Source: an uncultured Peptococcaceae bacterium (GTDB lineage Bacteria > Bacillota > Dehalobacteriia > UBA4068). Taken from it: a stretch of DNA of 64,000 nucleotides. The stretch lies in the NCBI GenBank assembly GCA_964372025.1, contig CAYJPF010000003.1:3334-67333 (forward strand), written 5' to 3'. Below, one piece after another: positions 18,395 to 37,551 of the stretch. The first letter of the stretch is position 1. Each line of letters opens with the position of its first letter. The notes beneath the pieces were generated by a model that made no database searches, was not told the origin of the DNA, and saw only the letters and a program-made list of their open reading frames with translations. Position numbers and translations under genes: made by a program.

Positions 18395-18423
18395 TTGATT
18401 TTTCTGTATTAGTGTGGTATGGT
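18395..18423 (+). promoter_or_regulatory. candidate promoter TTGATT-17-TGgTATGGT
   Basis: -35 18395-18400, extended -10 18415-18423; precedes GAAAGGAG RBS and TTG start of fibre-like gene. Confidence 0.45.
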
Positions 18424-18461: not shown

Positions 18462-20312
18462 TTGAAGATAGGTACAACGCCGACTATATTGATTTCTATT
18501 CCCGAAGTGGTGGAATACGAAAGTCTATTCGTGACATTTAAAGGTACAGAGGGTAGTGTTACTTTTGAGAATCCCGAAAAGATTGAGGAGGATTTTCATT
18601 GTAAGTTTACCCAGTCTCAAACTCAAACCCTCGGAGTGGGATACGTAGATATTGAAGCGCAGATAGTTTTCTCAAATAAATCTACAGCTAAGACAGTTCT
18701 TGCGAGGATTTATAACGAGAAATCTATACACACTCACTCAGTAACTGGAGTAGGTGGAGTGCCGGAAACGGAAACTTTTTCACTCGCAGTAGCAGGCGAA
18801 ATTGTGTACTCTGGAGAAGGCGGAGCTGGCACTACAAACCATGCTGCGTTGGAAAATCTGGACTACCTTAACAGTGGGCACACAGGCTTTCAATCAGCTT
18901 TAACACAAGAACAGCTTGACAATATCTCGGATATATCAGGGTTCATCGTAGACAGTACGTACAACCAGACTACAGGCGTACTGACGCTGACAAAGCAAGA
19001 CGGTTCAACAATCACAATAGACCTACCTGTAGAAAATATAATCTCGTCCGGGAGTTTTGACACTACAACAAACGAAATAGTGTTGGAACTTGTATCAGGC
19101 GAAGAGATACGCATACCGGCAAGCTCTTTGGTGGATACGTATACAGGTGGTGAAACCGTAACCGTCAGCGTTGCAGTCAACGAAGGTGTTATTACAGCTA
19201 CAGTTAAAAGCGGTAGCATTACTAACTCACATCTCAGTGCGGAACTAAGTGCTTCCTTAAATGAACTGACCTTAGCGATGCACAGTCACGCAAACAAAGC
19301 TTTGCTGGACAGTCTCACTCAAGCTATGGTTGATAAGATAGCCGAGATAGATGACAAAGCAGACGCAAGTGATATCCCTACCGTTCTACCCAGCCCTGCA
19401 TCTATTAAATTTACAGGCGCATCTACTGCAACATACGATGGTAGTGTTGCGGTGACCGTTAACATCCCCGAAGCGTCAGGGCCTGTTACAACTAACCATG
19501 CAAGCCTACAAAACCTTGATTACGCTAATAGCAACCATACAGGATTTCAAGCTTCTTTAAGTTCAGGACAATTAGCAAACATTGCTGCCGTTCCTGACAA
19601 AGCATCTCAAACAGATTTAGAAGCCGTTAGAACAACAGCAAATAGTGCAATCCAAGAAGAGACAGACCCTACTGTCCCCGCATGGGCTAAGGCGAGTTCT
19701 AAACCGTCATATACTGCTACCGAAGTTGGAGCACTTCCTGCCTCGACAACAATCCCTACTAACACAAATCAACTTACTAACGGCAGTGGGTTTATTAACC
19801 AAACAGACGGAGATGCTCGCTACGAACGCATAATAGCAACCAAAAATACAGCCTTTAACAAAAACTTTGGTAGTAGTGCAGGAACAGTTGTCGAGGGAAA
19901 TCGAGTGCTAACAGATGTCCCAGTTGGTGCTGTATTTACTGATACCGTTTACGATGATACCCCCCTATCACAAGAGATAGCTCGTATTGCGGGTGAGATG
20001 GACGGCAAGGAGGACATCACAACCACAAGGACTATCACTGCTTCTACCGCTGCTACAGGTGTTGCACTTGTAGACAACGAAGACGTGACTATCAGTGCTA
20101 TAACAACGTCAATCAACGTCACCGCAAGTGAAGGCACAGGCACTATATCCCTCGTAGCAGGCGCAACACTAAGCGTAACGCTCCCTAGTGGCCAAGGCTT
20201 TGCCGGTCTCACACCTACAAGCGGCACTACGTACGAGCTCGAAATTACCGAAGGCTTAATTTACAACATGGTATATTTCAAAGGTACATACTATATAGAC
20301 GGGGGTAGGTAG
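18462..20312 (+). CDS. fibre-like protein with internal duplication (616 aa), TTG start
   Basis: S/T-rich; two copies of TNHAxLxNLDYxNSxHTGFQ...L.NI motif around aa 125 and 340; beta-rich composition typical of phage fibres. Confidence 0.55.
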   Translation: MKIGTTPTILISIPEVVEYESLFVTFKGTEGSVTFENPEKIEEDFHCKFTQSQTQTLGVGYVDIEAQIVFSNKSTAKTVLARIYNEKSIHTHSVTGVGGVPETETFSLAVAGEIVYSGEGGAGTTNHAALENLDYLNSGHTGFQSALTQEQLDNISDISGFIVDSTYNQTTGVLTLTKQDGSTITIDLPVENIISSGSFDTTTNEIVLELVSGEEIRIPASSLVDTYTGGETVTVSVAVNEGVITATVKSGSITNSHLSAELSASLNELTLAMHSHANKALLDSLTQAMVDKIAEIDDKADASDIPTVLPSPASIKFTGASTATYDGSVAVTVNIPEASGPVTTNHASLQNLDYANSNHTGFQASLSSGQLANIAAVPDKASQTDLEAVRTTANSAIQEETDPTVPAWAKASSKPSYTATEVGALPASTTIPTNTNQLTNGSGFINQTDGDARYERIIATKNTAFNKNFGSSAGTVVEGNRVLTDVPVGAVFTDTVYDDTPLSQEIARIAGEMDGKEDITTTRTITASTAATGVALVDNEDVTISAITTSINVTASEGTGTISLVAGATLSVTLPSGQGFAGLTPTSGTTYELEITEGLIYNMVYFKGTYYIDGGR

Positions 20313-20313
20313 C

Positions 20314-20892
20314 ATGAGCAGAGCAGCAATGTTGCTTAAACAAGGGATTGTTATGAGTGGCAAGAAAAGCGGAGGCAGTTGTTATATAGAATATGAAACC
20401 GACAATCAGGTACAAACGCGTGTAGAATTTTTAAGCACGATTGAAATGCGCGAATGGTTGGATACATACGGCAGTAGTGTGTTTGGCTCAATAAAAGTAG
20501 CAAATAATCACAATGCAGAAAAACGCACAAACTTTGAATTGATGTTTGCGTACATGCCTAATGTTACAACCATCGACCTTAGCGAGTTTAATTTGGATGG
20601 GGCTATAAGTATAAAAAACATGTTTCGAGAGAACATTAGTCTTACGAGTTTATATGTAGCTATAAACGACACTTCCGAATTACACAACATATCATATATG
20701 TGTTGGAAGTGTTCTTCACTTAAAAATATTGACTTTTCCGGTTCAGACTTGATGCAAGTTGGAGACACTCGATACGCCTTTAATGGGTGTACATCCGTTT
20801 TAACGGCTTACGCTAAAAATAACGCCGATGTCGCTAAACTAAACACCTCGACATCCAAACCAGTTACGTGGAACTTCGTAGTCAAACCTTAA
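20314..20892 (+). CDS. BspA-type leucine-rich-repeat protein
   Basis: Repeats F..M.NVTTIDLS / F.EN.SLTSLYV / CSSLKNIDFS / FNGCTSV characteristic of the LRR_5 (BspA) family. Confidence 0.6.
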   Translation: MSRAAMLLKQGIVMSGKKSGGSCYIEYETDNQVQTRVEFLSTIEMREWLDTYGSSVFGSIKVANNHNAEKRTNFELMFAYMPNVTTIDLSEFNLDGAISIKNMFRENISLTSLYVAINDTSELHNISYMCWKCSSLKNIDFSGSDLMQVGDTRYAFNGCTSVLTAYAKNNADVAKLNTSTSKPVTWNFVVKP

Positions 20893-20904: not shown

Positions 20905-21612
20905 ATGAAATACGGAAAAATAATAAGCGGTGAACTGGTGCTCGTAGACCCTACCAAGGCAGAACTAACCGAAGAGGGTATCTATACCAGAGTACCTAAG
21001 ACCGCAGAGGAGCTTGACGGAGCTAAACCCGTAGTCTATGGGGAATACCCCTCGGCTACTATATATCAGACAGTGGACAGGGTTTATAATGATGGTGCAG
21101 AAAATATTGCCGTTGACTACACTGTAACTGACAAAACAGCAGAGGAAGTTGCTGAAATAGATAGAAGTATTTGGGCTTCAGACGCAATCCAAATATTTGT
21201 TTCCGCTGAACTTGGTGAAGAAGTGCCCGAAGAGCAGTACGAAGTAGCTGTAGAAGAAATCATTAAGCAACAACGAAATAAGCTTACAAGCCCGCCTGTG
21301 CAGGGTGCAGCGTACAGCGAGACCAAGAACTACATCACCGGTGATACTATGCTCTTTACAGACGGCAATACTTACATGTCGTTGAAACACAATAGGGGCA
21401 TGTCACCTATAGACTATCCCGAAAGATGGCTGAACACTACGGTGCAGGGCAATCCTAATTGGGAAGATGACCCGATAGATTTCTACTACCTTGAGGGAGA
21501 TATTCGTGACTACGAAGGTCTAACTTATACCTGTAAAAATCCGCATAGCAAGAATGAGTTAAACTACCCGACATCTCAGAATGGTAAGCAAAACTGGAGA
21601 GTGCAGGTTTAA
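20905..21612 (+). CDS. protein with C-terminal tandem CBM5/12-like carbohydrate-binding repeats
   Basis: AYSETKNYITGDTMLFTDGNTYM and DFYYLEGDIRDYEGLTYTCKNPHSKNEL; paralogous to C-terminus of minus-strand ORF 34724-35206. Confidence 0.5.
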   Translation: MKYGKIISGELVLVDPTKAELTEEGIYTRVPKTAEELDGAKPVVYGEYPSATIYQTVDRVYNDGAENIAVDYTVTDKTAEEVAEIDRSIWASDAIQIFVSAELGEEVPEEQYEVAVEEIIKQQRNKLTSPPVQGAAYSETKNYITGDTMLFTDGNTYMSLKHNRGMSPIDYPERWLNTTVQGNPNWEDDPIDFYYLEGDIRDYEGLTYTCKNPHSKNELNYPTSQNGKQNWRVQV

Positions 21613-21613
21613 C

Positions 21614-22015
21614 ATGTTAAAAAAGAAAAAGAAACTGCCTATAATAGACAGTTTATTTAAAGAGTATACTGAAGCTGAGCTTAATGACATCCTTAAAGAC
21701 CTAAGCAATGAAGACAAGGCTAAGTTCTTAGGTATGGTTCAGTCAAACGCAATCAGTAATGGTATGCTTAGAGCTTACCCAGAGGTTATCCTTGCAGGAC
21801 AAGAGAGCGCTTTCATTTTACTCTACGAACGTTTTGTCAAACCTATGGTAGACGCAGACGAACGAATTAAGCGTGGCCTGACGGTAGACGAATTAAGCGA
21901 ACAGCTTATAACTCTTATAACCGTTAGAGCAGAAGAAGGCGTAGAGCGCAGAGAAAAGATGAAGGAGTACATCAAGAAACGCTCCGAAGGCAAGACAGTC
22001 GAAGATGTAATATAG
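21614..22015 (+). CDS. hypothetical helical protein
   Basis: ATG at 21614; last plus-strand gene before convergent terminator. Confidence 0.45.
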   Translation: MLKKKKKLPIIDSLFKEYTEAELNDILKDLSNEDKAKFLGMVQSNAISNGMLRAYPEVILAGQESAFILLYERFVKPMVDADERIKRGLTVDELSEQLITLITVRAEEGVERREKMKEYIKKRSEGKTVEDVI

Positions 22016-22019
22016 CAAA

Positions 22020-22046
22020 AGGAGAGGATAAATCCTCTCCTTTTTT
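22020..22046. terminator. bidirectional rho-independent terminator
   Basis: GGAGAGGAT-aa-ATCCTCTCC perfect 9-bp hairpin followed by TTTTTT on plus and preceded by AAAAG. Confidence 0.6.
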
Positions 22047-22667
22047 CTATGGCGTGTCATTCAAGTCAGCTACTATCCAGTTTAAATAACTTGCGTACAC
22101 TGTGCCACCTACAAATACGCTTGGAGAGCGACTTCCCGAACCCGACAAGGCACTTATAGCCGTCCTTGCTTGATTGTACATGGCAGCAGTGAAGTCATTG
22201 CCCGAGTACGCTGTGCTAAAGCTATAGTTGCTAAGCCCTTGGTAAGCTCTAAACTCATTGATACGAGAAGTGAACAAGTTCCATTCGTAAGCCGATAGAT
22301 TAAAATTGTTGCCCGAAACCTTAGCGGTGACCCATGAAAAATCATCAGGTCTTGGCTCGTAAGGTTCTTCGTCAGCCCTAAACTCTTGAGCACCTATCCA
22401 GTCAAACGAAAGTTCGTCATCAGAAGCAGAAGCAACATTTATTGTGTACCATTCATCTGGGTAAGGGAAAGTTATGTTTTGCTCAAACGATAAAGTAGAA
22501 GAAGATACAGTCGTAATACGGTCACGTATAGTTTCGCCTGTGCCATCACTTTCTCTACCTGTTCTTAAGAAAATGCGATACTTGGTAAAATTACTGTCTG
22601 TTGTAACTTCAATCCTAACGCTGTTATGGTCAAAACTTAGTATGTCGAATGAAGCAGTTGTAGCCAT
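22047..22667 (-). CDS. structural protein, FN3/Ig-like (206 aa)
   Basis: last gene of tail operon; AGGTGG RBS; S/T-rich beta composition. Confidence 0.5.
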   Translation of the reverse strand: MATTASFDILSFDHNSVRIEVTTDSNFTKYRIFLRTGRESDGTGETIRDRITTVSSSTLSFEQNITFPYPDEWYTINVASASDDELSFDWIGAQEFRADEEPYEPRPDDFSWVTAKVSGNNFNLSAYEWNLFTSRINEFRAYQGLSNYSFSTAYSGNDFTAAMYNQARTAISALSGSGSRSPSVFVGGTVYASYLNWIVADLNDTP

Positions 22668-22678
22668 TTAAACACCAC

Positions 22679-24622
22679 CTATCCAAACTTAGCAGTAACA
22701 CCGGTAACATTAGCAGAGCTAAAGTCCACGCTACCATAAAATATAGTAGAATGAGTGCTGTGCCCCACATCCCCCGGTCTTCTGCCTACATACAAGTTTC
22801 CGCTTCCCAATGAATGGGCACTAATGTATAAGCTGGAATTAGCGTCGAGACTAATGTTACCCTCGCTGGATAGTCGTATGTCTCCTAATTGGTTCCAGAA
22901 TTTTAAGTCAGCATTTACAGCCGACAGAACAGCTTCGTTATTAGCGTTATCTATTTCAAAATGCATCTTAGAGTCGTTGTCTATACCACCCATCTCGACA
23001 CCGTTATCAGAGACAACAAGATACCCTTGACCGAACATCATATCAGTATAGTCGTTAGCATCGCTTTCAGCAGCGTTAGCATACCCTCTGGCATCACTAC
23101 GTACCGCAGAAGCCGATAGCGTTATCTCTGACCCTAACTCACTGGATACTTGTGTAATGCGGCTCTCTGTGTCTATAAATCCTTGTGCTGTCTCTGCTTG
23201 GTACTGAGTGACTAAAGAGATGGTAGCATAAGTAGCGTCTGCGTATGTGTAGATGTTCGCTATAGAGACAACTGTGTCGGACATGTACTGACTAAGGGTA
23301 ACGTACCCGCCGTCAGTCTTGATATGCACATCATCGCCTTCGTAACTACCGTTCCAATCGAACTTAGGATTATCTACCGTTGAGTTGTCATAGGCAAGCT
23401 TGAACATCTCGACGACGTTAATTAGCTTATCACCTATCAATACTGTAGCTTCAGACATATTCCACACATCGTAAGACCAATCGATAACGCGTAGTTCTTT
23501 TACCTCTAACTCAGAGCCGTCTGTAGAACGAGCGTACACTCTAACGATATCTCCTATCTGGAAAGTCTCGTGAGCATAGTCAGGTTCTTCTCTACGGTCG
23601 TACAGTTGTACACTGTAGTTTTCTTTAGGCTTGCACCTATCTCTTAGTTCTCGCTGTCCCCAATACTTGAGCTGTGTCTGACCGCTGGTAGATGCAGCAC
23701 CTGTGTACTTAATGTTAGGGTTAACGAGATACCCCTCGTACACTTCGTCTGTATAGGAATAGTTCTCGAGGTAAGTCTTGTCGTTGTTTACAGCTTTAAT
23801 GTTTAGGTTTCCGTCTCCTAAGATGTAAGCCTTAGTGACTATGTTGTTGTCTACGGTGATTACAGGCTCAGCAAGCATGTTTTTACCGTACCGTACATCG
23901 TACCCTACCCACGTATTAAAGTCCGTCCCTATCTTGTCTGCGTCTCTTAGAGATACAGTCTTGGCTATACTATCATAAACAAGTACGCCTCCCCATAGAG
24001 TGCGTATATTTTTTATGTTTGTAAGCACATCTTTCATGTCGCTTTCTAAGTTGAAAACACCGTAATCTTCGTCAGGGTCAAATCCATCCACGAGAACATC
24101 ACAAACACCCAAAGACCAACCAAAGCGATTACCTTTAAGCACAGCCCATAGAGCATATCCTGCGCTACCTCTGGGCATAGTAATACCACGACCATCTTTA
24201 ACTTCGCTGTCATTATACTCAACGCCATTGACTGTAAGCTTATTGGTAGTGGGAGATTTAGGCAGTATCTTGACTGTGTGTTCGTCCATAGCCTCTACTT
24301 CTAAGTCCACATTATGCGCTTGAACATAAGTATTGGCAAGCTCATACCACTTTTCTACCAATATAACAGTGATAGTATCACCCTCATAGCGTACGGCTTC
24401 AGTGCTAAGAGCTTTATATATGCGTCCATTAACATGCCATTCATTACGTAAGTCTTTAACGTCTGCCCACTTCTTGCTGTCACGCAATATAGTAAAGGTA
24501 AAGGTGCTCTCACCATCTAACTGCGTATGAACAATAGGATTTATAATACTACCTTGTGCTACTGCTCCATTGGCAGGTTTATTAAAGACAGCTACTCTGT
24601 GCCCGTCTTTATCAAAAACTTG
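22679..24622 (-). CDS. tail-associated (Tal-like) minor structural protein, GTG start
   Basis: N-terminus VAIQVFDKDGHRVAVF...WHVNGRIYKALSTEA resembles the phage minor structural protein N-terminal region; GAAAGGAG RBS before GTG at 24622. Confidence 0.6.
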   Translation of the reverse strand, partial: QVFDKDGHRVAVFNKPANGAVAQGSIINPIVHTQLDGESTFTFTILRDSKKWADVKDLRNEWHVNGRIYKALSTEAVRYEGDTITVILVEKWYELANTYVQAHNVDLEVEAMDEHTVKILPKSPTTNKLTVNGVEYNDSEVKDGRGITMPRGSAGYALWAVLKGNRFGWSLGVCDVLVDGFDPDEDYGVFNLESDMKDVLTNIKNIRTLWGGVLVYDSIAKTVSLRDADKIGTDFNTWVGYDVRYGKNMLAEPVITVDNNIVTKAYILGDGNLNIKAVNNDKTYLENYSYTDEVYEGYLVNPNIKYTGAASTSGQTQLKYWGQRELRDRCKPKENYSVQLYDRREEPDYAHETFQIGDIVRVYARSTDGSELEVKELRVIDWSYDVWNMSEATVLIGDKLINVVEMFKLAYDNSTVDNPKFDWNGSYEGDDVHIKTDGGYVTLSQYMSDTVVSIANIYTYADATYATISLVTQYQAETAQGFIDTESRITQVSSELGSEITLSASAVRSDARGYANAAESDANDYTDMMFGQGYLVVSDNGVEMGGIDNDSKMHFEIDNANNEAVLSAVNADLKFWNQLGDIRLSSEGNISLDANSSLYISAHSLGSGNLYVGRRPGDVGHSTHSTIFYGSVDFSSANVTGVTAKFG

Positions 24623-24644
24623 TATAGCCACTTTAATTCTCCTT

Positions 24645-25439
24645 TCAATACAGCTCGTCTGATTTCCAAAGGAACATCGGATTATACTGCACAAGCATGT
24701 TTGCTTCAGTCTCAGCGTTGAGAGCAGTCACAGCATAACTCTTAGTCTTGGATATCTTAGTAAAGAGATACCCTTTGCTCAGATAACGCATAGCATTAAT
24801 CTGACTGCCATCTATGCCTAATAGGTAACACCTGTCCTCTACAGCGTCTATAACAAGCGAATAGCCTGTGGGTACAGTACTATCCCACTTGAACTCAACA
24901 TCGCCTACAGTGAAATTAGGAGTTACTACGCCTTCTCCTATCGTTGCTGTAAAGCCTATATCAGCATGACCCTTGTTATCTATCATGCCGTTGCCGTGGA
25001 AGGCTACAGGGGCAACCAACGTTCCATATGGTTGTGTCTCAAACGGTATAGACACCTTAATCATGTTGTATTCGTCAAGTATCTCAGCAGACCCGGAATA
25101 TTTCACCTTAAACATAATACCGGCCTTAGTAAACACAAAGTTTTGATACTTGTCTTTAGTACTGTCGAGAGCAAACACTAAGTCGCGTTTAATCTTTTCC
25201 CTTTGCTCGAATGTTCGCCCTGCATACGACACAGCAACTACAGAGAATACCCTGTTCAAGTACTTAGTATCCTTGACTATTTCGCCATCTACACCGGGGA
25301 TATTAACGATAACATTCTCAGCAACTGGGATAGCAGGGAAGTTAGTTTCATCTGTGTTGACAATCAAACCAAAAGGCATAAAGTATATCCTCGGGTCTGT
25401 ATCTCCCACTCTGCCTATAGTAAAGTTAAAATCACTCAT
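24645..25439 (-). CDS. distal tail protein (Dit)-like, siphovirus tail family
   Basis: MSDFNFTIGRVGDTDPRIYFMPFGL...IPGVDGEIV pattern; paralog of adjacent gene. Confidence 0.6.
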   Translation of the reverse strand: MSDFNFTIGRVGDTDPRIYFMPFGLIVNTDETNFPAIPVAENVIVNIPGVDGEIVKDTKYLNRVFSVVAVSYAGRTFEQREKIKRDLVFALDSTKDKYQNFVFTKAGIMFKVKYSGSAEILDEYNMIKVSIPFETQPYGTLVAPVAFHGNGMIDNKGHADIGFTATIGEGVVTPNFTVGDVEFKWDSTVPTGYSLVIDAVEDRCYLLGIDGSQINAMRYLSKGYLFTKISKTKSYAVTALNAETEANMLVQYNPMFLWKSDELY

Positions 25440-26590
25440 TCAGAAAACTCCTTTCCCCACAAATACATTGGGCTATAATCAGTGACTATACTTGCCAAAG
25501 TGCTTGAGTTGAGGCAAGTAAGCTTTGCACTCTCGTTAAGATTAAGCTTAAAGAACTCTCCGCCTTTAGTTAAATCAGTTATAGCGTTAATTCTATTTCC
25601 AAAACCGTCAATCAGATAGCATATGGATTTGTCTGCATCTATGATAAGCTTATAGCCTTCAGGCACAGTGCCTTCCCACAGAAACTCCAGCGTGCCTACA
25701 GTAAAGTTAGGATTAACACATCCAGCGGACAGGGTGAATATAGCGCCTATAGGCTTAGCGCCTGTATTAGTAATAGTGCCATCTCCGTAGAACTGTTCAG
25801 AGAACAATGTCTTGCCGTAGGGTGAAACTTCAAAAGGCACTGTAGCTCTCAACCAGCCATGTCCCTCACGAACCTCAGCACCGCCTGAGTACTTAACATC
25901 AAAGGTCATGTCGTTCTCTTGGATAGACAACTGCTGGCTCTCATTGCGTGTCCTGTCCAGCAACTCAGCGATGTGAGATTTCATTTCATTTAGCTGAGTA
26001 ACGCTTAGTCCTTGCATTGAGTAAGAGACAATATTAAAGAAACGATTAGTGTACAAAGTATCCTTAATCACTGTGCCATCAACGTTTGGAAGGTCGATAT
26101 AAGTACTTTCTGTAGAGGGCATAATCTGTATCTCGCTCTCTACAGGTGAAAGGAAAGTGTCGAAAGGCATGAACCACTTTTTGCGTGGGTCTCTATCCTC
26201 TGCACCACCAATATAAAAGTCGCTCTCAGCTACTCTGGGAATACCATCAGTAATTTCTACGCTATCAGACACAGGGATATGAGCAAAGGTACTCAAAACG
26301 TCACTTATGCCTATATCGTCTAAAATATCAAGAAACGCTGCAACTGAAGTACCATCTTGCATGTTTATTTGGTCGAACACATCTAATCGTGCTTCAGCAA
26401 GGCGTGTAGCATCGTCAACAATGACACTATCGCCGAATAAGTTAAGCACTTCCTGCAAGCCTATAGCGTCAGAAACATTGATAGTGTCGATTATGCTAAC
26501 CAAATAAGTAATAACTGCTCCATTGTAGGTCAACGCTCCTTCATAGCCATGCGCATTATAACGAGCGTTTTTGTTATAAATGTTGCTCAA
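25436..26590 (-). CDS. Dit-like paralog with about 130-aa N-terminal extension, TTG start
   Basis: Core ESDFYIGGAEDRDPRKKWFMPF...LPNVDGTVIKDT...PMYLW collinear with 24645-25439; AGGAGG 7 nt upstream of TTG at 26590. Confidence 0.55.
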   Translation of the reverse strand: MSNIYNKNARYNAHGYEGALTYNGAVITYLVSIIDTINVSDAIGLQEVLNLFGDSVIVDDATRLAEARLDVFDQINMQDGTSVAAFLDILDDIGISDVLSTFAHIPVSDSVEITDGIPRVAESDFYIGGAEDRDPRKKWFMPFDTFLSPVESEIQIMPSTESTYIDLPNVDGTVIKDTLYTNRFFNIVSYSMQGLSVTQLNEMKSHIAELLDRTRNESQQLSIQENDMTFDVKYSGGAEVREGHGWLRATVPFEVSPYGKTLFSEQFYGDGTITNTGAKPIGAIFTLSAGCVNPNFTVGTLEFLWEGTVPEGYKLIIDADKSICYLIDGFGNRINAITDLTKGGEFFKLNLNESAKLTCLNSSTLASIVTDYSPMYLWGKEFSE

Positions 26591-26597
26591 AAAAAGA

Positions 26598-26628
26598 CCT
26601 CCTAAAAAGAAAAGGGGCAAGCGCCCCT
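26598..26628 (-). terminator. rho-independent terminator (minus strand)
   Basis: GGGGCgcttGCCCC hairpin followed by TTTTCTTTTT on minus strand, immediately after stop of 26633 gene. Confidence 0.55.
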
Positions 26629-26632
26629 CGTC

Positions 26633-28039
26633 TTATATTCTTTCGTATAGATAATACCGCGGGCTTCTGTTTGCACAATCAAGTTCCAACGCTTCCCAAG
26701 AAGTATAGAAGTAATCTCCATTGATTTGCACGTATTTAGAACGATACGAAGAGTCGAACTTCCCGTCATACATATAAGCATCAGCACCCATCACAGTGTC
26801 GTTAATCATAGCCGCAAGGAAGATGTAATGCCCTCCGGTAGAAAAGATGCCGGTGTGACCAGACCTATCTCCACCTACATTAGCAATAACAGCTCCACCG
26901 CGCTTCAGAACCAACTCAGCTTCTTGCCAATCGCTTGTAGTCTGATAATCAACATCCCACTCGTCAGCTACTGCTTCAGAAAGCGTCTTCATGTTTGTTC
27001 CACCTGACACTCTTGCACCACACTCTAAAGCCAGCTCAACCATGCCCTCAACATCTACATTAAAACCCAAGCGAGACAGTACCATAGCCATAGAAGTAGG
27101 GCCACAACCACCGGATGCAACAGTTGCACTCTCGTAGCCCGGTGCAGGGTAAGGCATATTAGGGTAATCTCTTTGATTGAATACAGTAATGTCAGGCTTG
27201 AACTTACTTAAGCTTAACACAAAAGCAGCTCTGTAACCACTGGAAGTAGGATAGTAAATCCTTATTAGTCCATTGATAGTGACATCTCCGATAGCACATA
27301 CGTCACCTTCGGAAATATACCTTCCGCTCTCTATCAATCCAGCTTCGGTGTAAACAGACTGTTTCTCCGTTGAAACTAAAGTTACTTCTTGGTAGTACTC
27401 TGTATCTTCGGGCGGATGCGGCTCTGGTTGTTCTTCGGGCTCAGGCTCTACTATTGCAGGCGCATCATCATAAGCAACAACAGCGTTATATAGATAGTCC
27501 CTTGTGCTGGTGTCATGCCATTCACCTTCAAACAATAAGTACCTGCTTCCACCACCATCGTGATTAGACATGCTTACCATACCTGCGGACATAGCCTTAT
27601 TGCTAAATTGTTCTAAAGTGGTACCTTCATCAACCATGATTACATAGCAATCACCGTTAGCATCCATAGCGAAGCCTATACGATTAGGCTGTGAGTTAAA
27701 TGCAGGGTCACTCCAACTGGGAGGAACATACTTGCCATTGACTACGCTGCCTGTGAACCCGGTAAAGTATTCGTTCCAACCTAACCATGGAGTGCCAAAA
27801 CCAAGAGCTCCATCCTTAGTTATCCCCATACCATAACCATTGCCAGAGTCTTTTACTTGCTTGCCATCCTCAATGATTGTGCCAAGCGGAATGTTCCCTG
27901 TTTCTTTAGACCAATGCACAAATGAACCTGAAAACATAATCACAGGTTTTTCTTTTTGAGCGTTGTACCACTCTGTAGGCGTTTTGCCGCCGAGCCTCAC
28001 AACATCCCATCTTAATCCCTTTGGTAGCTTAAACTTTTT
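26633..28039 (-). CDS. two-domain protein: N-terminal phosphodiester-glycosidase-like domain + C-terminal C39-like cysteine peptidase domain (monocistronic moron)
   Basis: C-terminal GGCGPTSMAMVLSRLG ... GHYIFL (Cys/His dyad of Peptidase_C39_2-type); N-terminal assignment tentative; GTG start with AAGGGG RBS. Confidence 0.55.
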   Translation of the reverse strand, partial: KKFKLPKGLRWDVVRLGGKTPTEWYNAQKEKPVIMFSGSFVHWSKETGNIPLGTIIEDGKQVKDSGNGYGMGITKDGALGFGTPWLGWNEYFTGFTGSVVNGKYVPPSWSDPAFNSQPNRIGFAMDANGDCYVIMVDEGTTLEQFSNKAMSAGMVSMSNHDGGGSRYLLFEGEWHDTSTRDYLYNAVVAYDDAPAIVEPEPEEQPEPHPPEDTEYYQEVTLVSTEKQSVYTEAGLIESGRYISEGDVCAIGDVTINGLIRIYYPTSSGYRAAFVLSLSKFKPDITVFNQRDYPNMPYPAPGYESATVASGGCGPTSMAMVLSRLGFNVDVEGMVELALECGARVSGGTNMKTLSEAVADEWDVDYQTTSDWQEAELVLKRGGAVIANVGGDRSGHTGIFSTGGHYIFLAAMINDTVMGADAYMYDGKFDSSYRSKYVQINGDYFYTSWEALELDCANRSPRYYLYERI

Positions 28040-28074
28040 CACGTCAAAACCCCTTTTCAATTTAGTATGACTTT

Positions 28075-28103
28075 AATATACACCTATAAACATAAAATGT
28101 AAA
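28075..28103 (-). promoter_or_regulatory. candidate minus-strand promoter TTTACA-17-TATATT
   Basis: -10 at 28075-28080, -35 at 28098-28103 (reverse complement), about 35 nt upstream of GTG start. Confidence 0.4.
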
Positions 28104-28460
28104 GTTAATTAAGAGAAATTGTTAGATGTTGTATATATGGCCCTTTGGTGGGCTGGTTGAGCAAATAGCTACTCCCCCCCCCGCACGTGTTTAAAGCAAG
28201 AGAAAGGAGTAGCTACACATATGGCCCTTCGGAGCCGCCGCATATCGCTTTTTGCTATCAGCCGAAACTGAAATCGGATTAACCACCAAGGTCTTGTGTC
28301 AAACGTGGCGGGTGGTCATCCCTTTCCGATTCTCCCCTCATTGCTGAACAAGGACGGGGTCACTGCACTCACAGTGAAATCTTAAAAACAACGTGGCTCT
28401 AACCCACTACATACCGGTGACGAACACGGCACAGGGAATAACTCCACACCCCTGAACAAG

Positions 28461-28500
28461 AGTAAAAATATAAAAGCCCTACAGTGTAAGCGCACTGTAG
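28461..28500 (-). terminator. rho-independent terminator (minus strand)
   Basis: CTACAGTG-taagcg-CACTGTAG 8-bp hairpin followed on minus strand by GGCTTTTATATTTTTAC. Confidence 0.5.
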
Positions 28501-28587
28501 AGCCTTTGTATAACTTAGCATATGCTAAGTTATCATGTATGTAGTCGCTTACCTACAAACAAATAATAGCATACTCGAAAGCGTTTG

Positions 28588-29133
28588 TCAAGCCATGTAA
28601 TGAAAATAACAGTAAATACGCTCGTAAGGTTTTTTACCGCTATCTTCGTCAAACAAAAAGTCCTTAGCCAGCTCAACAAAAAAGCGAGCTTCACCGGTCA
28701 TTTCAGCAATCACAGCACTGCGGTAGTGGTCGTGCCACATAGCATTTAGGACAGCCCAGAACTCCATCTCTGTAAGGTCTGTCATGTCTACGCCATACTG
28801 CTTGCCCACGGCAGTAGTTTGTTGCATGTTCCAGTGTGCGCCCATATGCTTAGCACCGTTAGCTGTATGCCACATTCCGGCTACCCAGTCCTCAAGTTCT
28901 TTATCGCTCAAACGCATTTCGTGGTCTTCGCTATGCATTTCTGCGTCAGGGTAGGTAGCACCTAAAACTTCTGTGTGATAAGTTTTCCAAAACTCACGAC
29001 TACGCATAAGCTTACAAAACTCATACTCATGTACTACTTCGGCTTTCATTGCCGTAGTAAGGGGCATACCTGACTTGATGTCCTCTTGAAGCATTTGCAG
29101 TTTTTTCTCTGCATCAACGCAAGATTTATACAT
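28588..29133 (-). CDS. hypothetical His/Trp-rich protein (181 aa)
   Basis: AGGAGG 8 nt before second in-frame ATG (MYKSCVDAEKK...). Confidence 0.5.
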   Translation of the reverse strand: MYKSCVDAEKKLQMLQEDIKSGMPLTTAMKAEVVHEYEFCKLMRSREFWKTYHTEVLGATYPDAEMHSEDHEMRLSDKELEDWVAGMWHTANGAKHMGAHWNMQQTTAVGKQYGVDMTDLTEMEFWAVLNAMWHDHYRSAVIAEMTGEARFFVELAKDFLFDEDSGKKPYERIYCYFHYMA

Positions 29134-29314
29134 TAGTTTTATCCTCCTGTGTTTCATCTTCGCTTAGCACAGCGTTCATGTCTATGCCAAGCTTGTTTTT
29201 AAGCACCTTGTCGCCCATCTTTAATGCCATCTTGCTGGTGCTTTCAACTATCTTCCGCCCTTCAGCCGTTGTGAATAGGCAAGCAAAAGTAGCTCCCATT
29301 ACAAACTGCTTCAT
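29126..29314 (-). CDS. hypothetical small protein
   Basis: 62 aa from internal ATG; weak RBS. Confidence 0.35.
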   Translation of the reverse strand: MKQFVMGATFACLFTTAEGRKIVESTSKMALKMGDKVLKNKLGIDMNAVLSEDETQEDKTNV

Positions 29315-29315
29315 C

Positions 29316-29762
29316 TTAATTAGCACACTTTCTCTTGCCTTTTACGCCTTGAAGAGTTAAAGAGCACGATGCCGGTGCAAACCTCAAGACGAGTATACTT
29401 CTGCATTGAAGCGTAGTCTGCCACAGGTCAGCAACGCAACCACCTGTACGGCAAGGTAATACTTCATAGACAGGGAGCGTAGTAGTGCCGTCTGTAATCT
29501 CTACAAGATTGCACGAGCTGTCAAGCGGGATGCTGGCAAATAGACCAACCTCGACACATTCGCAAGCACAGAGACCTGTTAAAGCTCCATCCGATACAGT
29601 TACGGTGTACTTGCCGCTCTTTAAAGTTACACTGCTGGCTCGCAGTACGCAGTTACAATTACTCATTTTAGTAGTTCTCCTTTTAAGTTTTATTTCGTTA
29701 GTCGCAGTCGCAACTACAATTCCGTTAATGCTAAAAGACGCTGTGTTTATGATACTAAGCAT
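29316..29762 (-). CDS. Cys-rich protein (12 Cys in C-terminal 116 aa); start ambiguous (29762 or 29666)
   Basis: N-terminus MLSIINTASF resembles MSIVNTANF of upstream gene (shared TAAACACAGC DNA); internal AAGGAG RBS before MSNCNCVLRAS. Confidence 0.4.
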   Translation of the reverse strand: MLSIINTASFSINGIVVATATNEIKLKRRTTKMSNCNCVLRASSVTLKSGKYTVTVSDGALTGLCACECVEVGLFASIPLDSSCNLVEITDGTTTLPVYEVLPCRTGGCVADLWQTTLQCRSILVLRFAPASCSLTLQGVKGKRKCAN

Positions 29763-30106
29763 TGATAGAGTATCAAGTGGCTCGAGTTAGGCATCCAGTT
29801 GACTTCTATATGTGAAGGATTGCCTTCTAAGGGTTCGGCATCTACAGTAAGCGTACCTTCTATATAGCTTAATGCTGAAGGCAGGGTGTCACTAAAGACT
29901 TGATTGGTAAGTTGACCGTTGAAGTCGCTTATTTCGATGGTAACAGCATAGGTAATCACGTCTCCACGATAAACTGAACTTGGGTGAGCTTTTTTGCTAA
30001 TAGTCACAATAGGCTCAACAAGTTGCTCTACAGTGGAGCTGGCATTAACTACAAAGTCTTCATCTCGGAAGCGATAATTAAAGTTAGCTGTGTTTACAAT
30101 TGACAT
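29747..30106 (-). CDS. DUF11-like beta-sandwich (conserved repeat domain) protein
   Basis: YRGDVITYAVTIEISDFNGQLTNQVFSDTLPSALSYIEGTLTVD resembles the DUF11/B_ant repeat pattern. Confidence 0.45.
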   Translation of the reverse strand: MSIVNTANFNYRFRDEDFVVNASSTVEQLVEPIVTISKKAHPSSVYRGDVITYAVTIEISDFNGQLTNQVFSDTLPSALSYIEGTLTVDAEPLEGNPSHIEVNWMPNSSHLILYQCLVS

Positions 30107-30192
30107 GATAGCCTCCTAAATTAAAAGAGGACGGTCTCCCGCCCTCTAAGTCACGCCGAAGCGGAAAGTCACAATAATTTCTTATTGGAAAA

Positions 30193-30711
30193 TTAGCAGC
30201 CGAATCCGCCTACAGGACTACCACTGCATACATAAGCCTGACCGTAAAGTCTGGGCTCTTTCAGCATCTCGCAACGGATAGCGTTAAGCTCTGCTTTGAT
30301 AGCAGCAGTCTCAGCTTGCGAAACGAGGTCGCGCTTAAGGGTTGCTACCTCAAGGTTAAGTGCGTTCTTCTCTTGTCCATCAAGGATAGCACGTGATTGT
30401 GCATCAAGCTTGAGGTCAAAGATACGCTCTTGAAGTCCAGCCTCATACTGGCGCGAAGACTGGTCATACAGTCTCTGAGTGTTGGCGTTATTAGCTTCGA
30501 TTGTGCGGTTTGTGGTTTGCTCAATCAGATACTGAGTACGAGCGGTATCTATAATGCCTTGTTTTTCAACTTCGCAGTTAGATACACGGTTGCAACCAGC
30601 TTCATTGTAGCGATTACCAAACAGTCCGCCGCCGAAAATCAGCCAAATGATAACGATGATAAACAGGATACCAATGGTTGAGTTCGAGCTTGTGTCTCTT
30701 GTTTCCCACAT
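30193..30711 (-). CDS. membrane-anchored coiled-coil protein with Cys-rich ends
   Basis: N-terminal TM IGILFIIVIIWLIFGGGLFG, long helical region, C-terminal YVCSGSPVGGFGC. Confidence 0.5.
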   Translation of the reverse strand: MWETRDTSSNSTIGILFIIVIIWLIFGGGLFGNRYNEAGCNRVSNCEVEKQGIIDTARTQYLIEQTTNRTIEANNANTQRLYDQSSRQYEAGLQERIFDLKLDAQSRAILDGQEKNALNLEVATLKRDLVSQAETAAIKAELNAIRCEMLKEPRLYGQAYVCSGSPVGGFGC

Positions 30712-30749
30712 AGTGTTTTGCTCCTTTCAAAAAATATTTATTTCGTCGC

Positions 30750-31115
30750 CTATTTCAGACGAGGAAATTTAGGTTTATTGCTGTTGGAGCTGGATTTATT
30801 TGAGCTTTGTGGCCTGTTTACTCCGCCACTTTTAACTATATTTAATCCTTGTTGTTTTAACTGTTCGGGACTTGTTCCTACAAGGCTTAGCAGAGTCTTA
30901 GCCATTGGATTACTCCCGTATCTATTATACAGTTCGTTTATTCCTTGCTCAGTAATACCAAAGTTACGAGCAATGTCACCTGCTTGGTCGTCAGTTGCTC
31001 CCTGAACTGCTTGGCTTGCTCGTTTTACTGCTTCCTGTATTTCGTTTTGGTTGCCCGGAAACATCTTCATCAACTGTGACAGTATCATTTGTGTGTTGAA
31101 CATTTGCATTACCAC
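30750..31115 (-). CDS. hypothetical protein
   Basis: ORF; overlaps 30991-31416 by about 115 nt in another frame; true start uncertain. Confidence 0.4.
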   Translation of the reverse strand: MVMQMFNTQMILSQLMKMFPGNQNEIQEAVKRASQAVQGATDDQAGDIARNFGITEQGINELYNRYGSNPMAKTLLSLVGTSPEQLKQQGLNIVKSGGVNRPQSSNKSSSNSNKPKFPRLK

Positions 31116-31416
31116 CTTTCAGTTCTTTTAACAACTGTAGTATCTCAAGGTTAGCCGCTTGGCTCTGCCTAAGAGCTTCTTGCGTCTCTTGCAAAATCTC
31201 TTCAGAAGTCTTTTCAGGTACGATGATGCCTACTTCGACAAGCTTGTTGTAATATTCAACTGTAGTCTCTTCTAAGGCGTTGTAGCGGTCGTTAGTATGC
31301 CCTATAGGTTGCTTGCCTGTATGGAAGTCTATGGCGTATATAACACCATCTTCTACTACACAAGGGATACGTGCGTTGCCTGTACTAAACTGGGCGTTGT
31401 AAGAAAAATCACTCAT
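30991..31416 (-). CDS. hypothetical protein (142 aa)
   Basis: AAAGGTG RBS before ATG at 31416 (MSDFSYNAQ...). Confidence 0.45.
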   Translation of the reverse strand: MSDFSYNAQFSTGNARIPCVVEDGVIYAIDFHTGKQPIGHTNDRYNALEETTVEYYNKLVEVGIIVPEKTSEEILQETQEALRQSQAANLEILQLLKELKGGNANVQHTNDTVTVDEDVSGQPKRNTGSSKTSKPSSSGSN

Positions 31417-31582
31417 AATTAACACACCTTTCTTTGTTGCAGCGACTGAGTGGGTGCAGGTGTGATACACCCACGTCTGCCGCCGCTATATACATGGGGG
31501 GAAGGAACGGGAATAAAAAACTCCCTACCTTGATACTACAAGATAGAGAGTATATTCATAAGTACTCTAAAGGTACTAATTA

Positions 31583-32932
31583 TTATTTTTTCTTTTGGTT
31601 TTTCTTTAGCTCTGGGAACACCTTAGCAACCTCACCAAAGTAGTTCTTACACGTTTGTTCAGAATAGCCAATCTCTAAAGAGACCTGCTTCATTGTCATG
31701 TTATCCACACAATACATTAAGGTTATCTTCTCGTGTAAGTTTCTAAAACCAGCTTCATTAAGTTTTAGCTTCAACTCATGTTTAGGTGAAAACAACATCT
31801 TTAGTTTAGCAATGAAGGGTTTGTCTGCTATATAATCAAATGCCTCTCTTATCATATACAGAATAAAGTCAACAATCAGTGCGACGATAACTGTGTTGAA
31901 GATAGAGAAAGCAATTCCGGTTGTATTAAATAACGCTACACACAAAGTGATTGTAGTGATACATACGCAAGCAATCTTGACCAGATTAGCTCTAATGTTA
32001 GGAATATAGTCTGCGTGAAACTGCTTTGGAAATAGCTTTCTTAGTGCTAAGTATGCAACGTAAAGAAAAACTGCCTCAACTACTCTGCCTATAAAGTACG
32101 CATAAAGCAAGTACAATCCATAGACAAATATAAGCGGAGGCAAATTCTTCTTCAAGTCGTGCCGAAACTCAAGCTTCAGGTAATGCTTGAAGTTCTTCGA
32201 GTTCCGTGTGAAGCTTGTGCAAACGCCAGCGAATATACTCTTTTTCGCTTTCGTCTGTCGAACCTTCAAAGCGCTTGACAAGGTTTGCAATGCTTCCTTG
32301 AATACGCTTGCGCTCTTCTTCCATGAAGCCGAGGCCCCATCTAAACACAATAGCCATTTGCGTCCACCTACCTTTATATTTATTAGAGTTATAATCCATA
32401 AAAGATAATAGTCAACAGAATATATCGCAGACATTGCAAAAGACTGTGATTGTTCTATTAAAGATAAATTAAGAACAAACAGCGAACAAAAACTGAAAAT
32501 GCTATCTAAAACAAACAAGCACATCGTAGGCGCAAGGCGCTTCGTAAATAATAACGGAATTGCATAAAAAGAAAAACTTAGAATTGCTACTAACACATTC
32601 CATTCTTCCCCTGCGAATAAAGTGTTGATAACAATTAAATAAGATGTTACAAAAGTATTAACAATTAAGGCTCTACTTTTGTAATTTGGGATAACACAGG
32701 CGTACATTAGGTTAATGCCTATCATGCCCTTGATTACGTTAATTATACCTCTCGCCCAGTCGTTGCTGTCTACAAAATAAATAAAAGCGTTGAGTCGAGA
32801 ATTAGTTATCTCTACACCAAACGCTTCTATGCCGAAAAGCTTCAGTGTAAACGTAGCAAACAAGAACACCCAACACAAGGTTAGCACTCGACTCATTATA
32901 GCCGTGAAATGTGCTCTTGTCATAATAGTCAC
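31583..32932 (-). CDS. polytopic membrane protein with C-terminal sigma70-region4/LuxR-like HTH
   Basis: multiple TM helices at both ends; C-terminal MTMKQVSLEIGYSEQTCKNYFGEVAKV; hydrophilic central linker contains an alternative-frame ORF. Confidence 0.5.
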   Translation of the reverse strand: MTIMTRAHFTAIMSRVLTLCWVFLFATFTLKLFGIEAFGVEITNSRLNAFIYFVDSNDWARGIINVIKGMIGINLMYACVIPNYKSRALIVNTFVTSYLIVINTLFAGEEWNVLVAILSFSFYAIPLLFTKRLAPTMCLFVLDSIFSFCSLFVLNLSLIEQSQSFAMSAIYSVDYYLLWIITLINIKVGGRKWLLCLDGASASWKKSASVFKEALQTLSSALKVRQTKAKKSIFAGVCTSFTRNSKNFKHYLKLEFRHDLKKNLPPLIFVYGLYLLYAYFIGRVVEAVFLYVAYLALRKLFPKQFHADYIPNIRANLVKIACVCITTITLCVALFNTTGIAFSIFNTVIVALIVDFILYMIREAFDYIADKPFIAKLKMLFSPKHELKLKLNEAGFRNLHEKITLMYCVDNMTMKQVSLEIGYSEQTCKNYFGEVAKVFPELKKNQKKK

Positions 32933-33015
32933 ACCTGCTTTATAATTGAGGGAGGCCGCCGCCCGGCGAGAAACGACGACCTCGGAGGTTTTAAATGGAA
33001 TCCAACTGTACCTTT

Positions 33016-33044
33016 ATAGTAGCACGATACCCACTATTTGTCAA
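33016..33044 (-). promoter_or_regulatory. minus-strand promoter TTGACA-17-TACTAT
   Basis: -35 at 33039-33044, -10 at 33016-33021 (reverse complement); spacer ends aTCGTGC as in promoter at 13522. Confidence 0.5.
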
Positions 33045-33095
33045 CACACTTCTAAAGAAATAGTGTTTAAAAATATATTAACAAAAGATTAAGTT

Positions 33096-33572
33096 TCACT
33101 TAGCTCTTTTTTCAAGCTTATTAAAGCTTTCAATCCATGTAGGCATCGTTCCATTGCCATTGCTCTTTTCATAAGCATTGTAAAGTTTAATTACCGTCTC
33201 TACTTCGTCATAGGTGCTGTACCCACGTTCTAAAGCTCGTGTAATCAAATAATGCAGTCGTTCGTGAAGCACGGCAATGTTTGCTTCCTGCAATGCCGGA
33301 AGATTGTCTGCAACAGCGTTTAAACTTTCAATCGCTGTGGTTAGCTTGACAATCTGTCCGCTACAGTCTTTCCGGCATTGCAGCCCTGTTTCTAACTTTT
33401 CTCCCATCACTCTTACCTTTTCTTCAAGAGTTGCAATTTTGTTGTTTTGCAATCGTTTGTCTTGAATACGCCTTGCAATTTTCTTGCAAAGAGGGACAAT
33501 AATTTTTGCCAAAGTTAAATACGCACCTCCAATAATGCCAATTAACCCTGCAGCCTCTACAACTTCAAACAC
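33096..33572 (-). CDS. TM + coiled-coil protein, paralog A (holin-associated)
   Basis: N-terminal TM, C-terminal ERGYSTYDE...NGNGTMPTWIE..NKLEKRAK; paralog of 33594-34085. Confidence 0.5.
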   Translation of the reverse strand: MFEVVEAAGLIGIIGGAYLTLAKIIVPLCKKIARRIQDKRLQNNKIATLEEKVRVMGEKLETGLQCRKDCSGQIVKLTTAIESLNAVADNLPALQEANIAVLHERLHYLITRALERGYSTYDEVETVIKLYNAYEKSNGNGTMPTWIESFNKLEKRAK

Positions 33573-33593
33573 ACCTTGCCCCCCTTAGCAAAA

Positions 33594-34085: not shown

Positions 34086-34106
34086 CCTTTCGTTGGGAAG
34101 AATGTT

Positions 34107-34289
34107 TTACAGATGTCCGCTGTCTGTAGGATTGTTTACAATACCAAACGCTACAAGTACCGGCAACAGCACATTTAGGAGTCCGTCAACGGTTGCTGAA
34201 ATGTCAATACCGGCAAACTCTTTTACACAAAAAGTTACCAGTGCTGCGATAGACACCCAAAGTGCCCAACTCTTAAATCTGTTTTGCAT
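34107..34289 (-). CDS. holin, phiLC3/Phage_holin_1-like (60 aa, two TM)
   Basis: NRFKSWALWVSIAALVTFCV...GIDISA...LLPVLVAFGIVNNPTDSG matches phiLC3-family pattern. Confidence 0.6.
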   Translation of the reverse strand: MQNRFKSWALWVSIAALVTFCVKEFAGIDISATVDGLLNVLLPVLVAFGIVNNPTDSGHL

Positions 34290-34291
34290 AG

Positions 34292-34702: not shown

Positions 34703-34723
34703 TTTGTTTGCCTCCTTTTTATT

Positions 34724-35206
34724 TTAAATGCTTATCCAATACTTTTTGCCTGTAATAGTATCAGGAGCATTTAATTCGTTTCTGCTGTGACTCTGCTTAC
34801 ATTCGTAATTAGCACCATTCCACGACACCCTGTCGGTGCCGTCCAAAAAGTAATAATCAATAGCATAGCTATCCCAAGAGGGATAACCAGCCTCAAGCCT
34901 TAGCCAGAATGCCTTTTCGTCGCTATAAGTAGCGGTCACAGGGTCAATACCTTTAACAGGCTTCTCTGCCATGTATTCTGCTCCGTCAGAGCCTGTAACA
35001 ATATCGCCCCTGATGTACCGTTGCTCAGGGTTATACGCGTCACCTGCTTTAGGTATACCGCTTAATTGTCCGTCTACAATAGTGAGAGCTGACAGCCTTG
35101 TTGTAGTTTCGCTAAGTGCAATTTCCATCTCGAGTATCTCATTAGCCTTTGCTTCTGCAAGCACAAGGTCTACTGTAAATCTGCTATCTGCTTTAGGCAT
35201 TTTCAA
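34724..35206 (-). CDS. protein with tandem CBM5/12-like carbohydrate-binding repeats
   Basis: AYNPEQRYIRGDIVTGSDGAEYMAEKPVKGIDP and YYFLDGTDRVSWNGANYECKQSHSRNEL. Confidence 0.5.
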   Translation of the reverse strand: MKMPKADSRFTVDLVLAEAKANEILEMEIALSETTTRLSALTIVDGQLSGIPKAGDAYNPEQRYIRGDIVTGSDGAEYMAEKPVKGIDPVTATYSDEKAFWLRLEAGYPSWDSYAIDYYFLDGTDRVSWNGANYECKQSHSRNELNAPDTITGKKYWISI

Positions 35207-35606
35207 TTACCTCCGTTCCGGGTAAAGTCGGCCACACTACAGCATCGGGAAATCCCTCTTGCTCTGTGACATCTCGCAAAGCTTGTTTGTATATCTGCCA
35301 CTCAACCTTCTCTTCGGGAGATTTAAGCTCCCAGTTAGATGCGTTGCAATAGGTTAAGTCACATTCAAGCAGTAGTGCGTTACGCTGGTCGCGGATTACT
35401 TGTTCTTTCTGTGGGTCGAGTTCGGAGTGCTCAACTTTATCCCACCAGAGTTCTTCGGTCTCCACGTTAACCTTAAGGATGTAATCAAAAGGTACTGAAC
35501 CCGGCGGAGGCGGAATAGTGTCCGTAAGGAAATATGGACGGTCTGTCGGTGGTTTAGTTGAATATGACGCTAAGTCCCCACCGAACGTAAAAACATAATA
35601 AATCAT
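35193..35606 (-). CDS. tail fibre assembly protein (Caudo_TAP/Tfa-like)
   Basis: C-terminal KVEWQIYKQALRDVTEQEGFPDAVVWPTLP matches Tfa W..YR..L...WP..P signature. Confidence 0.55.
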   Translation of the reverse strand: MIYYVFTFGGDLASYSTKPPTDRPYFLTDTIPPPPGSVPFDYILKVNVETEELWWDKVEHSELDPQKEQVIRDQRNALLLECDLTYCNASNWELKSPEEKVEWQIYKQALRDVTEQEGFPDAVVWPTLPGTEVIENA

Positions 35607-35618
35607 TTTACTTCTCCT

Positions 35619-36878: not shown

Positions 36879-36898
36879 AATTTCCCTCCTTTCTTAGA

Positions 36899-37489: not shown

Positions 37490-37551
37490 AATAAAGCCGC
37501 CTTTCTTCGATTGCTTCTCTGTTTTCATCATACACCCATTTGTTCGAAAAA

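Follow-up and report, generated by a model that had tools for sequence, protein, structure and literature searches.

The 64-kb window analyzed here (the whole stretch of DNA examined, 64,000 nucleotides (nt) of contig CAYJPF010000003.1 from an uncultured Peptococcaceae bacterium) carries phage genes on both strands. Two of them, p1 on the plus strand and p2 in the tail region of the minus strand (Table 1), share a C-terminal unit of ~110 amino acids (aa) that consists of two consecutive carbohydrate-binding modules of the CBM5/12 type. An earlier note on this DNA had described the C-terminal ~100 aa of both genes as collinear, and this was borne out by BLASTP, which aligned p1 residues 126–231 with p2 residues 47–157 over ~110 aa at 42/112 identities (38%) and 54% positives (E=2e-22). 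Alignment against shuffled controls had been set beforehand as the refuting test; the Smith-Waterman score of the pair was 195, compared with 33.1 ± 5.4 in 2000 shuffles (maximum 57), giving a z of about 30, and each half of the unit was conserved between p1 and p2 (z=14.6 for the first half and 21.4 for the second). The motifs quoted in the note are present in both copies, although the spacing of the first was a little off, its actual forms being AYSETKNYITGD and AYNPEQRYIRGD. Within a single protein, the halves showed no significant pairwise similarity to each other (z about 1–2), and scanning all six frames of the window with the family hidden Markov models (HMMs) revealed no copy of the unit beyond these two.

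The claim that a CBM5/12-like module occurs in both the plus-strand and the minus-strand tail-region gene, twice in tandem in each, was upheld by Pfam, by profile searches of the PDB, by hhalign, and by structure prediction followed by Foldseek. At the level of single sequences, Pfam CBM_5_12 (PF02839) matched p2 with 25.8 bits (E=1.1e-5; best stretch residues 125–140), narrowly below the gathering cut-off of 26.2 bits, and the public precomputed annotation of p2 lists PF02839.20; the match on p1 was weak (residues 195–216, 10.8 bits, E=0.54). Among the aligned small proteins of the family described below, 21 of 26 matched PF02839, with a best E of 4.4e-11. The profiles of both modules matched the chitin-binding domain (ChBD) of Bacillus circulans ChiA1 (1ED7; E=5.2e-5 for module 1 and 7.8e-6 for module 2), so that each half fits the CBM5/12 pattern as had been proposed; the module-1 profile also matched the Streptomyces ChiC ChBD (E=1.2e-3), and the two module profiles matched each other by hhalign (E=2.2e-5, probability 76%). 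Moreover, positions 14–101 of the family profile span both CBM12 modules of the Vibrio chitin oligosaccharide deacetylase (E about 1e-4).

When a profile made only from the units of p1 and p2 was run with HMMER against 1.84 billion representatives, 49 matches at E<1e-3 were returned. About half of these were small proteins of 143–274 aa with the whole double unit at the C-terminus, and the remainder were large multi-repeat proteins in which one half was matched several times. All eight of the large matches that were checked are CBM_5_12 proteins (29–122 bits); one is a GH19 chitinase, another combines collagen with CBM96, and a third has phage fiber repeats. A chance or compositional similarity of p1 and p2, with no common domain behind it, is so improbable that we regard it as ruled out, given E=2e-22, a z of about 30, and the independent matches in Pfam, the PDB, and structure libraries.

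The structure of p2 was predicted with AlphaFold2. From the single sequence, the model was unusable (pLDDT, the predicted local distance difference test score, 33.9) and the family alignment was needed; with it as input, the mean pLDDT rose to 89.4, and the model shows one long N-terminal helix followed by two small beta modules, that is, the compact small antiparallel beta-sheet module of ~45–60 aa that is typical of CBM5/12, seen twice. In a Foldseek search of this model against the PDB, the Vibrio chitin oligosaccharide deacetylases were the best matches (E about 2e-4), and the single chitin-binding domains of MmChi60, ChiC, and ChiB were superposed with a root-mean-square deviation (rmsd) of 2–4 Å over ~50 aa and a probability of about 1.0. 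Among predicted viral structures, Foldseek found numerous phage proteins that already bear the names CBM5/12, ChiA1-BD, or chitin-binding type-3.

These matches define how far the unit resembles well-known systems. Both modules align end to end with the ChiA1 ChBD (CBM12) through the pattern W...Y..G..V...G..Y.C...H.....P.....W, and the modules of p2 have the same small beta fold; p1 and p2 differ from ChiA1 in having Asn at the position of Trp687 (in module 2), in lacking a catalytic domain, and in belonging to a phage tail rather than to a secreted enzyme. The Vibrio deacetylase (3WX7, 4NY2, 9JT0) has two consecutive CBM12 modules that were matched as one unit, but there the pair follows a NodB deacetylase domain and the orientation of the modules differs, with an rmsd of about 11–12 Å over the pair. 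Closer in size are phage proteins in BFVD named 'ChiA1-BD-binding domain protein' or 'chitin-binding type-3 domain' (A0A8S5P9X0, A0A8S5PXP3), which are 100–250 aa long (some 100–150 aa), have the same fold, and likewise come from gut metagenome assemblies of Siphoviridae and Myoviridae.

Both genes are open reading frames (ORFs) as the earlier note had described them, except that the start of p2 is better placed. It is most probably ATG 35200 rather than TTG 35206, because GGAGG lies 8 nt upstream of this ATG and the ATG overlaps the stop codon of the upstream tail fiber assembly chaperone gene (as ATGCCTAA); the public gene call likewise gives 158 aa. The start-stop overlap suggests translational coupling of p2 to the chaperone gene. 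In p1, a GGAGG lies 7 nt ahead of the ATG. The N-terminal ~125 aa of p1 had no match in Pfam, PHROG, or NCBIfam, and a third, degenerate module considered in this part was rejected: a BLAST hint (E=0.06) was seen, but the HMM score was about 3 (E about 5). No signal-peptide-like N-terminus was seen by eye in p1 or p2, and a virion protein therefore fits better than a host-surface protein.

Table 1. Features of the window around p1 and p2, with positions counted from the first letter of the window
Feature	Position	Strand	Basis or remark
616-aa tail-fiber-like protein, first gene of the plus-strand cluster	18462..20312	+	weak own match to phrog_36886
DUF285 / BspA-like leucine-rich repeat (LRR) protein	20314..20892	+	Pfam DUF285 30.7 bits, cut-off 25
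p1, 235 aa	20905..21612	+	ORF; N-terminal ~125 aa, then C-terminal tandem CBM5/12 unit
p1 CBM5/12 module 1, residues ~131–178	21295..21438	+	module-1 HMM domain score 69.5, inflated, as the profile contains the query itself
p1 CBM5/12 module 2, residues ~182–234	21448..21606	+	module-2 HMM domain score 67.1
Small ORF, 133 aa from ATG 21614, last gene of the plus-strand cluster	21614..22015	+	ORF call
Hairpin GGAGAGGA-TAAA-TCCTCTCC, A-run before, T-run after	22017..22046	.	read from the sequence; missed by the pattern scan
Tal-like Prophage_tail gene	22679-24694	-	part of the tail operon
Dit-like genes	25436-26620 and 24645-25439	-	part of the tail operon
Holin, two genes downstream of p2	34107..34289	-	Pfam Phage_holin_1, 22.1 bits, cut-off 22
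p2, 158 aa from ATG 35200 (160 aa from TTG 35206)	34724..35200	-	long N-terminal helix, then tandem CBM5/12
p2 CBM5/12 module 2, residues 107–159	34730..34888	-	module-2 HMM score 58.7
p2 CBM5/12 module 1, residues 52–102	34901..35053	-	module-1 HMM score 55.7
p2 N-terminal alpha-helix, residues 8–47 (from TTG)	35066..35185	-	DSSP, pLDDT mostly >90
Tail fiber assembly chaperone	35193..35606	-	Pfam Phage_tail_APC E=2.6e-17; PHROG tail fiber assembly families
Tail fiber protein, 419 aa	35619..36878	-	PHROG tail fiber families, best E=5.2e-9

On the minus strand, the gene order is terminase, portal, protease, major head protein, tape measure, a 218-aa protein, fiber, chaperone, and p2, followed by a 136-aa protein of unknown function, the holin, two paralogous membrane proteins, further genes, two Dit-like genes, and a Tal-like gene. 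The p2 gene is thus coupled to the tail-fiber genes, stands at their end, and lies beside a holin; family scans found no lysin adjoining p2 in the window.

The plus-strand cluster that contains p1 is convergent to this tail operon, as the gene layout confirmed. Its first protein had been called fiber-like, and this is supported by a stretch at about residues 405–480 that recurs in 148 viral ORFs, mostly of 800–1500 aa, a sample of which matches PHROG tail and tail-fiber families. The second had been read as a BspA-LRR protein; DUF285 passes its cut-off, but the BspA family LRR_5 stays below threshold (20.3 vs 27.7 bits). The promoter proposed at 18395–18423 was not supported: it agrees with the consensus at only 8/12 positions, and promoter-like sites found in a scan were not in excess over shuffles. 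The 133-aa protein at the end of the cluster had no match in Pfam, PHROG, or NCBIfam, and the hairpin that follows it, between the convergent gene ends, is likely a bidirectional terminator. We also noted an internal repeat in the 616-aa protein, TTNHA(A/S)L(E/Q)NLDY(L/A)NS(G/N)HTGFQ, at about residues 113–134 and 342–363.

Small proteins composed of a helix and tandem CBM5/12 modules occur in more than 80 gut viral contigs. We define the family here from the proteins of the profile search (P0003–P0051) and from viral loci (L001–L083); the relatives comprise 80 IMG/VR loci, to which a closer sub-alignment led, two metagenome contigs, and one GenBank gut-phage scaffold. Members typically have an N-terminal helix of ~45 aa and a C-terminal double module in a total of 140–275 aa, and all of the short ones have 43–48 aa ahead of the modules; p2 fits this plan exactly. 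In p1, as in about a third of the members, the double module is carried on an unrelated, longer N-terminus. These N-termini are of several unrelated kinds, and that of p1 (~125 aa) matches none of them, with nothing significant in BLASTP against the family.

The loci of the relatives fall into four recurrent layouts (based on crude gene calls), with the same pattern throughout. Upstream of the family gene lie BppU_N+collagen fiber proteins or DUF6273 proteins, some with an adjacent reverse transcriptase, and the CBM gene mostly starts 3–19 nt before a small preceding gene ends; downstream lie DUF6275, holin-like membrane proteins, and endolysins (NlpC/P60+PG_binding_1, Amidase_2+SPOR, Phage_lysozyme2, and Peptidase_C1+PG_binding_1, with SH3_3 also seen). 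In gut phages of Gram-positive anaerobes, the receptor-binding block thus commonly ends with a gene of this family. This slot, at the end of the tail-fiber or receptor-binding block and before the lysis genes, is occupied by p2 but not by p1, which lies in the separate plus-strand cluster. No homology was found between genes of the window and the neighbors of family members elsewhere.

The two window proteins are remote from the rest of the family, being at most ~40% identical to any member. No close relatives were found in GenBank phages, IMG/VR, or JGI metagenomes, and p1 and p2 had none above ~50% identity in any collection searched; querying word-indexed proteins with p1, p2, and the family profile brought back little besides the queries. 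Among GTDB species-representative genomes, the sole match was one Acutalibacteraceae assembly (Clostridia), and it belongs to the wider family. The copies of p1 and p2 belong to the same divergent branch of the family, because they are mutual best BLAST matches (75 bits; next best 73.6 for p1 and 48.9 for p2) and fall together within a clade of six in a neighbor-joining (NJ) tree. A recent duplication inside this genome was considered and is not shown by these data, since the mutual best matches are exclusive sisters in only 39/100 NJ bootstraps. A duplication of the whole cassette was rejected, as the 419-aa and 616-aa proteins are dissimilar, as are the 136-aa and 144-aa proteins, and the CBM unit alone is in common. 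An invertible tail-fiber segment of the Mu G type was also rejected, with no long inverted repeats present in 16–38 kb.

Several family loci show features that deserve mention in their own right. In some (L001 3425–6065; L010 3985–6872; L043 5607–6734), the CBM gene lies beside a reverse transcriptase gene and a DUF6273 protein gene, an arrangement that resembles a diversity-generating retroelement with the receptor-binding block as its target. In two members (P0023 and P0027), the pair is preceded on its N-terminal side by an additional, very canonical CBM5/12 module (containing YNDQLYVCQKTHIAKAEWPPDGTYDLW). One synteny type has a gene with a SocA/Panacea antitoxin domain (L043 7509–8066) after the CBM gene, in the place where a lysis gene would be expected.

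With moderate confidence, we favor the view that p1 and p2 are virion-borne accessory glycan adhesins on the tail that bind a glycan of the host wall. We infer that the N-terminal helix of p2 is an attachment or oligomerization stalk, which would tether the protein to the tail fiber or baseplate, and the different 125-aa N-terminal part of p1 would do the tethering there. The distal tandem CBM5/12 unit might then bind an N-acetylglucosamine (GlcNAc)-type or related wall glycan of a Gram-positive, probably clostridial, host, and this contact could add avidity or provide the first reversible contact in adsorption. p1 would serve a second adhesion set, together with the 616-aa fiber-like protein and the DUF285/LRR protein, convergent to the tail operon, and the CBM5/12 copies may have been joined to unrelated N-termini by domain shuffling. 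A C-terminal (distal) binding unit is the usual layout of receptor-binding proteins, and the distal unit of p1 and p2 matches this layout.

A comparable arrangement is known from receptor-binding and accessory baseplate proteins of lactococcal phages, BppL of TP901-1 and BppA of Tuc2009 (PMC4742702). These proteins are small, their genes close the tail block between BppU and the lysis genes, and they have an N-terminal part in the baseplate and a C-terminal carbohydrate-binding head directed towards the host. The relatives of p2 follow BppU_N-containing proteins; the likeness is an analogy of working only, as no sequence or fold relationship was found and the CBM type is different.

Several observations weigh against adhesion to a chitin-like glycan or against adhesion itself. 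In module 2, the column of ChiA1 Trp687 (1ED7 chain position 33) holds Tyr in 80% of the sampled family and Asn in p1 and p2, and two positions that hold Trp in ~95% of the sample hold Tyr in both, although these percentages are indicative only, as the sample is dominated by one sub-family. In module 1, the equivalent column is occupied by Lys in the majority of members and by Ile or Met in p1 and p2, and the canonical Trp687-type aromatic is therefore absent from both window proteins. p1 and p2 share other departures from the family majority as well (e.g., NELN.P for KSTVYKP), and further Tyr and Trp residues occur in both. Because of the Asn at the Trp687 site and the Tyr at two conserved Trp positions, the ligand of the unit may not be chitin-like. 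In addition, the plus-strand cluster lies on the same strand as the early genes, and the solved phage structures that resemble the p2 model are baseplate-anchoring N-termini (Milano gp124 and 7-7-1 gp015) rather than receptor-binding tips. A more specific version of the adhesin proposal, in which p1 and p2 form a divergent CBM5/12 sub-branch without the canonical aromatics, with a non-chitin-like ligand and with one phage bearing two adhesins (possibly for two receptors or two hosts), seems to us unlikely as a whole; if true, the unit would be used twice, on the tail fiber set of the late operon and on a separately transcribed set (fiber-like, LRR, and p1) on the opposite strand, in a phage lineage for which the databases searched gave no close relative.

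The phage structures just named lead to a different explanation, namely that the tandem module is a protein-protein docking unit that fixes p1 and p2 to other parts of the virion and binds no sugar. Foldseek matched the p2 model to the spike gp124 of Agrobacterium phage Milano (8FQC) and the long tail fiber gp015 of 7-7-1 (9RKV) at E=6e-4 to 5e-3 (9rkv_M, E=5.8e-4; 8fqc_Q1/P1, E about 2e-3 to 5e-3), and the module-1 profile matched Milano gp124 residues 29–53 (E=0.034). In both proteins the N-terminal part, residues 1–175 in Milano and 1–120 in 7-7-1, is a tail- or baseplate-binding module that acts as the anchor (PMC10811340, PMC12796354), and the loss of the canonical aromatic from the window copies would suit a unit that binds no sugar. 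The unit of p1 and p2, however, is C-terminal, with a separate N-terminal helix or domain free for docking; the TM-scores of the phage structure matches are low (0.22–0.24), and in sequence the unit is far closer to true chitin-binding domains than to the Milano or 7-7-1 proteins. We therefore regard docking as a rather doubtful alternative, and the likeness itself places CBM5/12-like modules in phage adhesion complexes of solved structure.

Two further functions appear improbable, each to a greater degree than docking. p2 could be part of the lysis system, as a cell-wall-targeting subunit acting in trans for an endolysin or holin complex; the family gene always adjoins the lysis cassette, and in the window a holin is the second gene after p2 and an endolysin with a recognizable wall-binding domain was not identified. 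Against this, the endolysins of the related loci have wall-binding domains of their own (PG_binding_1, SPOR, SH3_3), the CBM gene is overlap-coupled to the upstream tail gene and not to the downstream gene, and p1 lies far from any lysis gene. The modules could instead bind environmental glycans, such as the GlcNAc of gut mucin, and keep the phage in mucus, which we consider equally improbable. Mucus retention has been proposed for Ig-like capsid decorations, CBM5/12 modules are reportedly linked to mucin-directed enzymes of gut microbes, and the relatives come from human gut viromes, but the placement of the gene among receptor-binding genes argues for the host surface as target.

The domain as such is no novelty, since CBM5/12 is well known from chitinases and public annotation already assigns it to many phage tail proteins. 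p1 and p2 are rather divergent additions to the known phage CBM5/12 proteins, and their assignment is correct but unsurprising, describing what is probably a fairly ordinary adhesion accessory; for experiments with phage CBM5/12 proteins, nothing specific was found in the literature. Overall, a very common small gene with which the tail-fiber block of gut Clostridia phages ends can be interpreted as encoding a helix followed by tandem CBM5/12 modules. The proteins of the family are cheap candidates for cell-wall-binding probes and host-range studies, and two copies on different scaffolds in one phage provide a natural experiment on whether the unit is portable as an adhesion cassette.

Lastly, the minus-strand tail region has features of its own. 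Its gene order (22047–41757) is unusual in that the tape measure gene (37552–41757) lies ~11 kb from the Dit-like and Tal-like genes, and the interval of ~11 kb between the tape measure and the Dit-like genes holds the fiber, the chaperone, p2, the holin, and unknown genes. Directly after the holin, two adjacent paralogues of ~160 aa (33096–33572 and 33594–34085, minus strand) each have an N-terminal membrane segment and a coiled-coil-like region and match phrog_4257 (unknown function); they may be part of the lysis system. A 475-aa protein (26633–28060, minus strand) encoded immediately ahead of the Dit-like genes combines NAGPA phosphodiester glycosidase and Peptidase_C39_2 domains and could be a tail-associated wall hydrolase or endolysin. 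The last gene of the tail operon (22047–22667, minus strand) encodes a 206-aa protein that matches only the C-terminal 100 of the 594 positions in phrog_37329 (E=6.6e-22) and might have split off from a larger tail protein as its distal domain.

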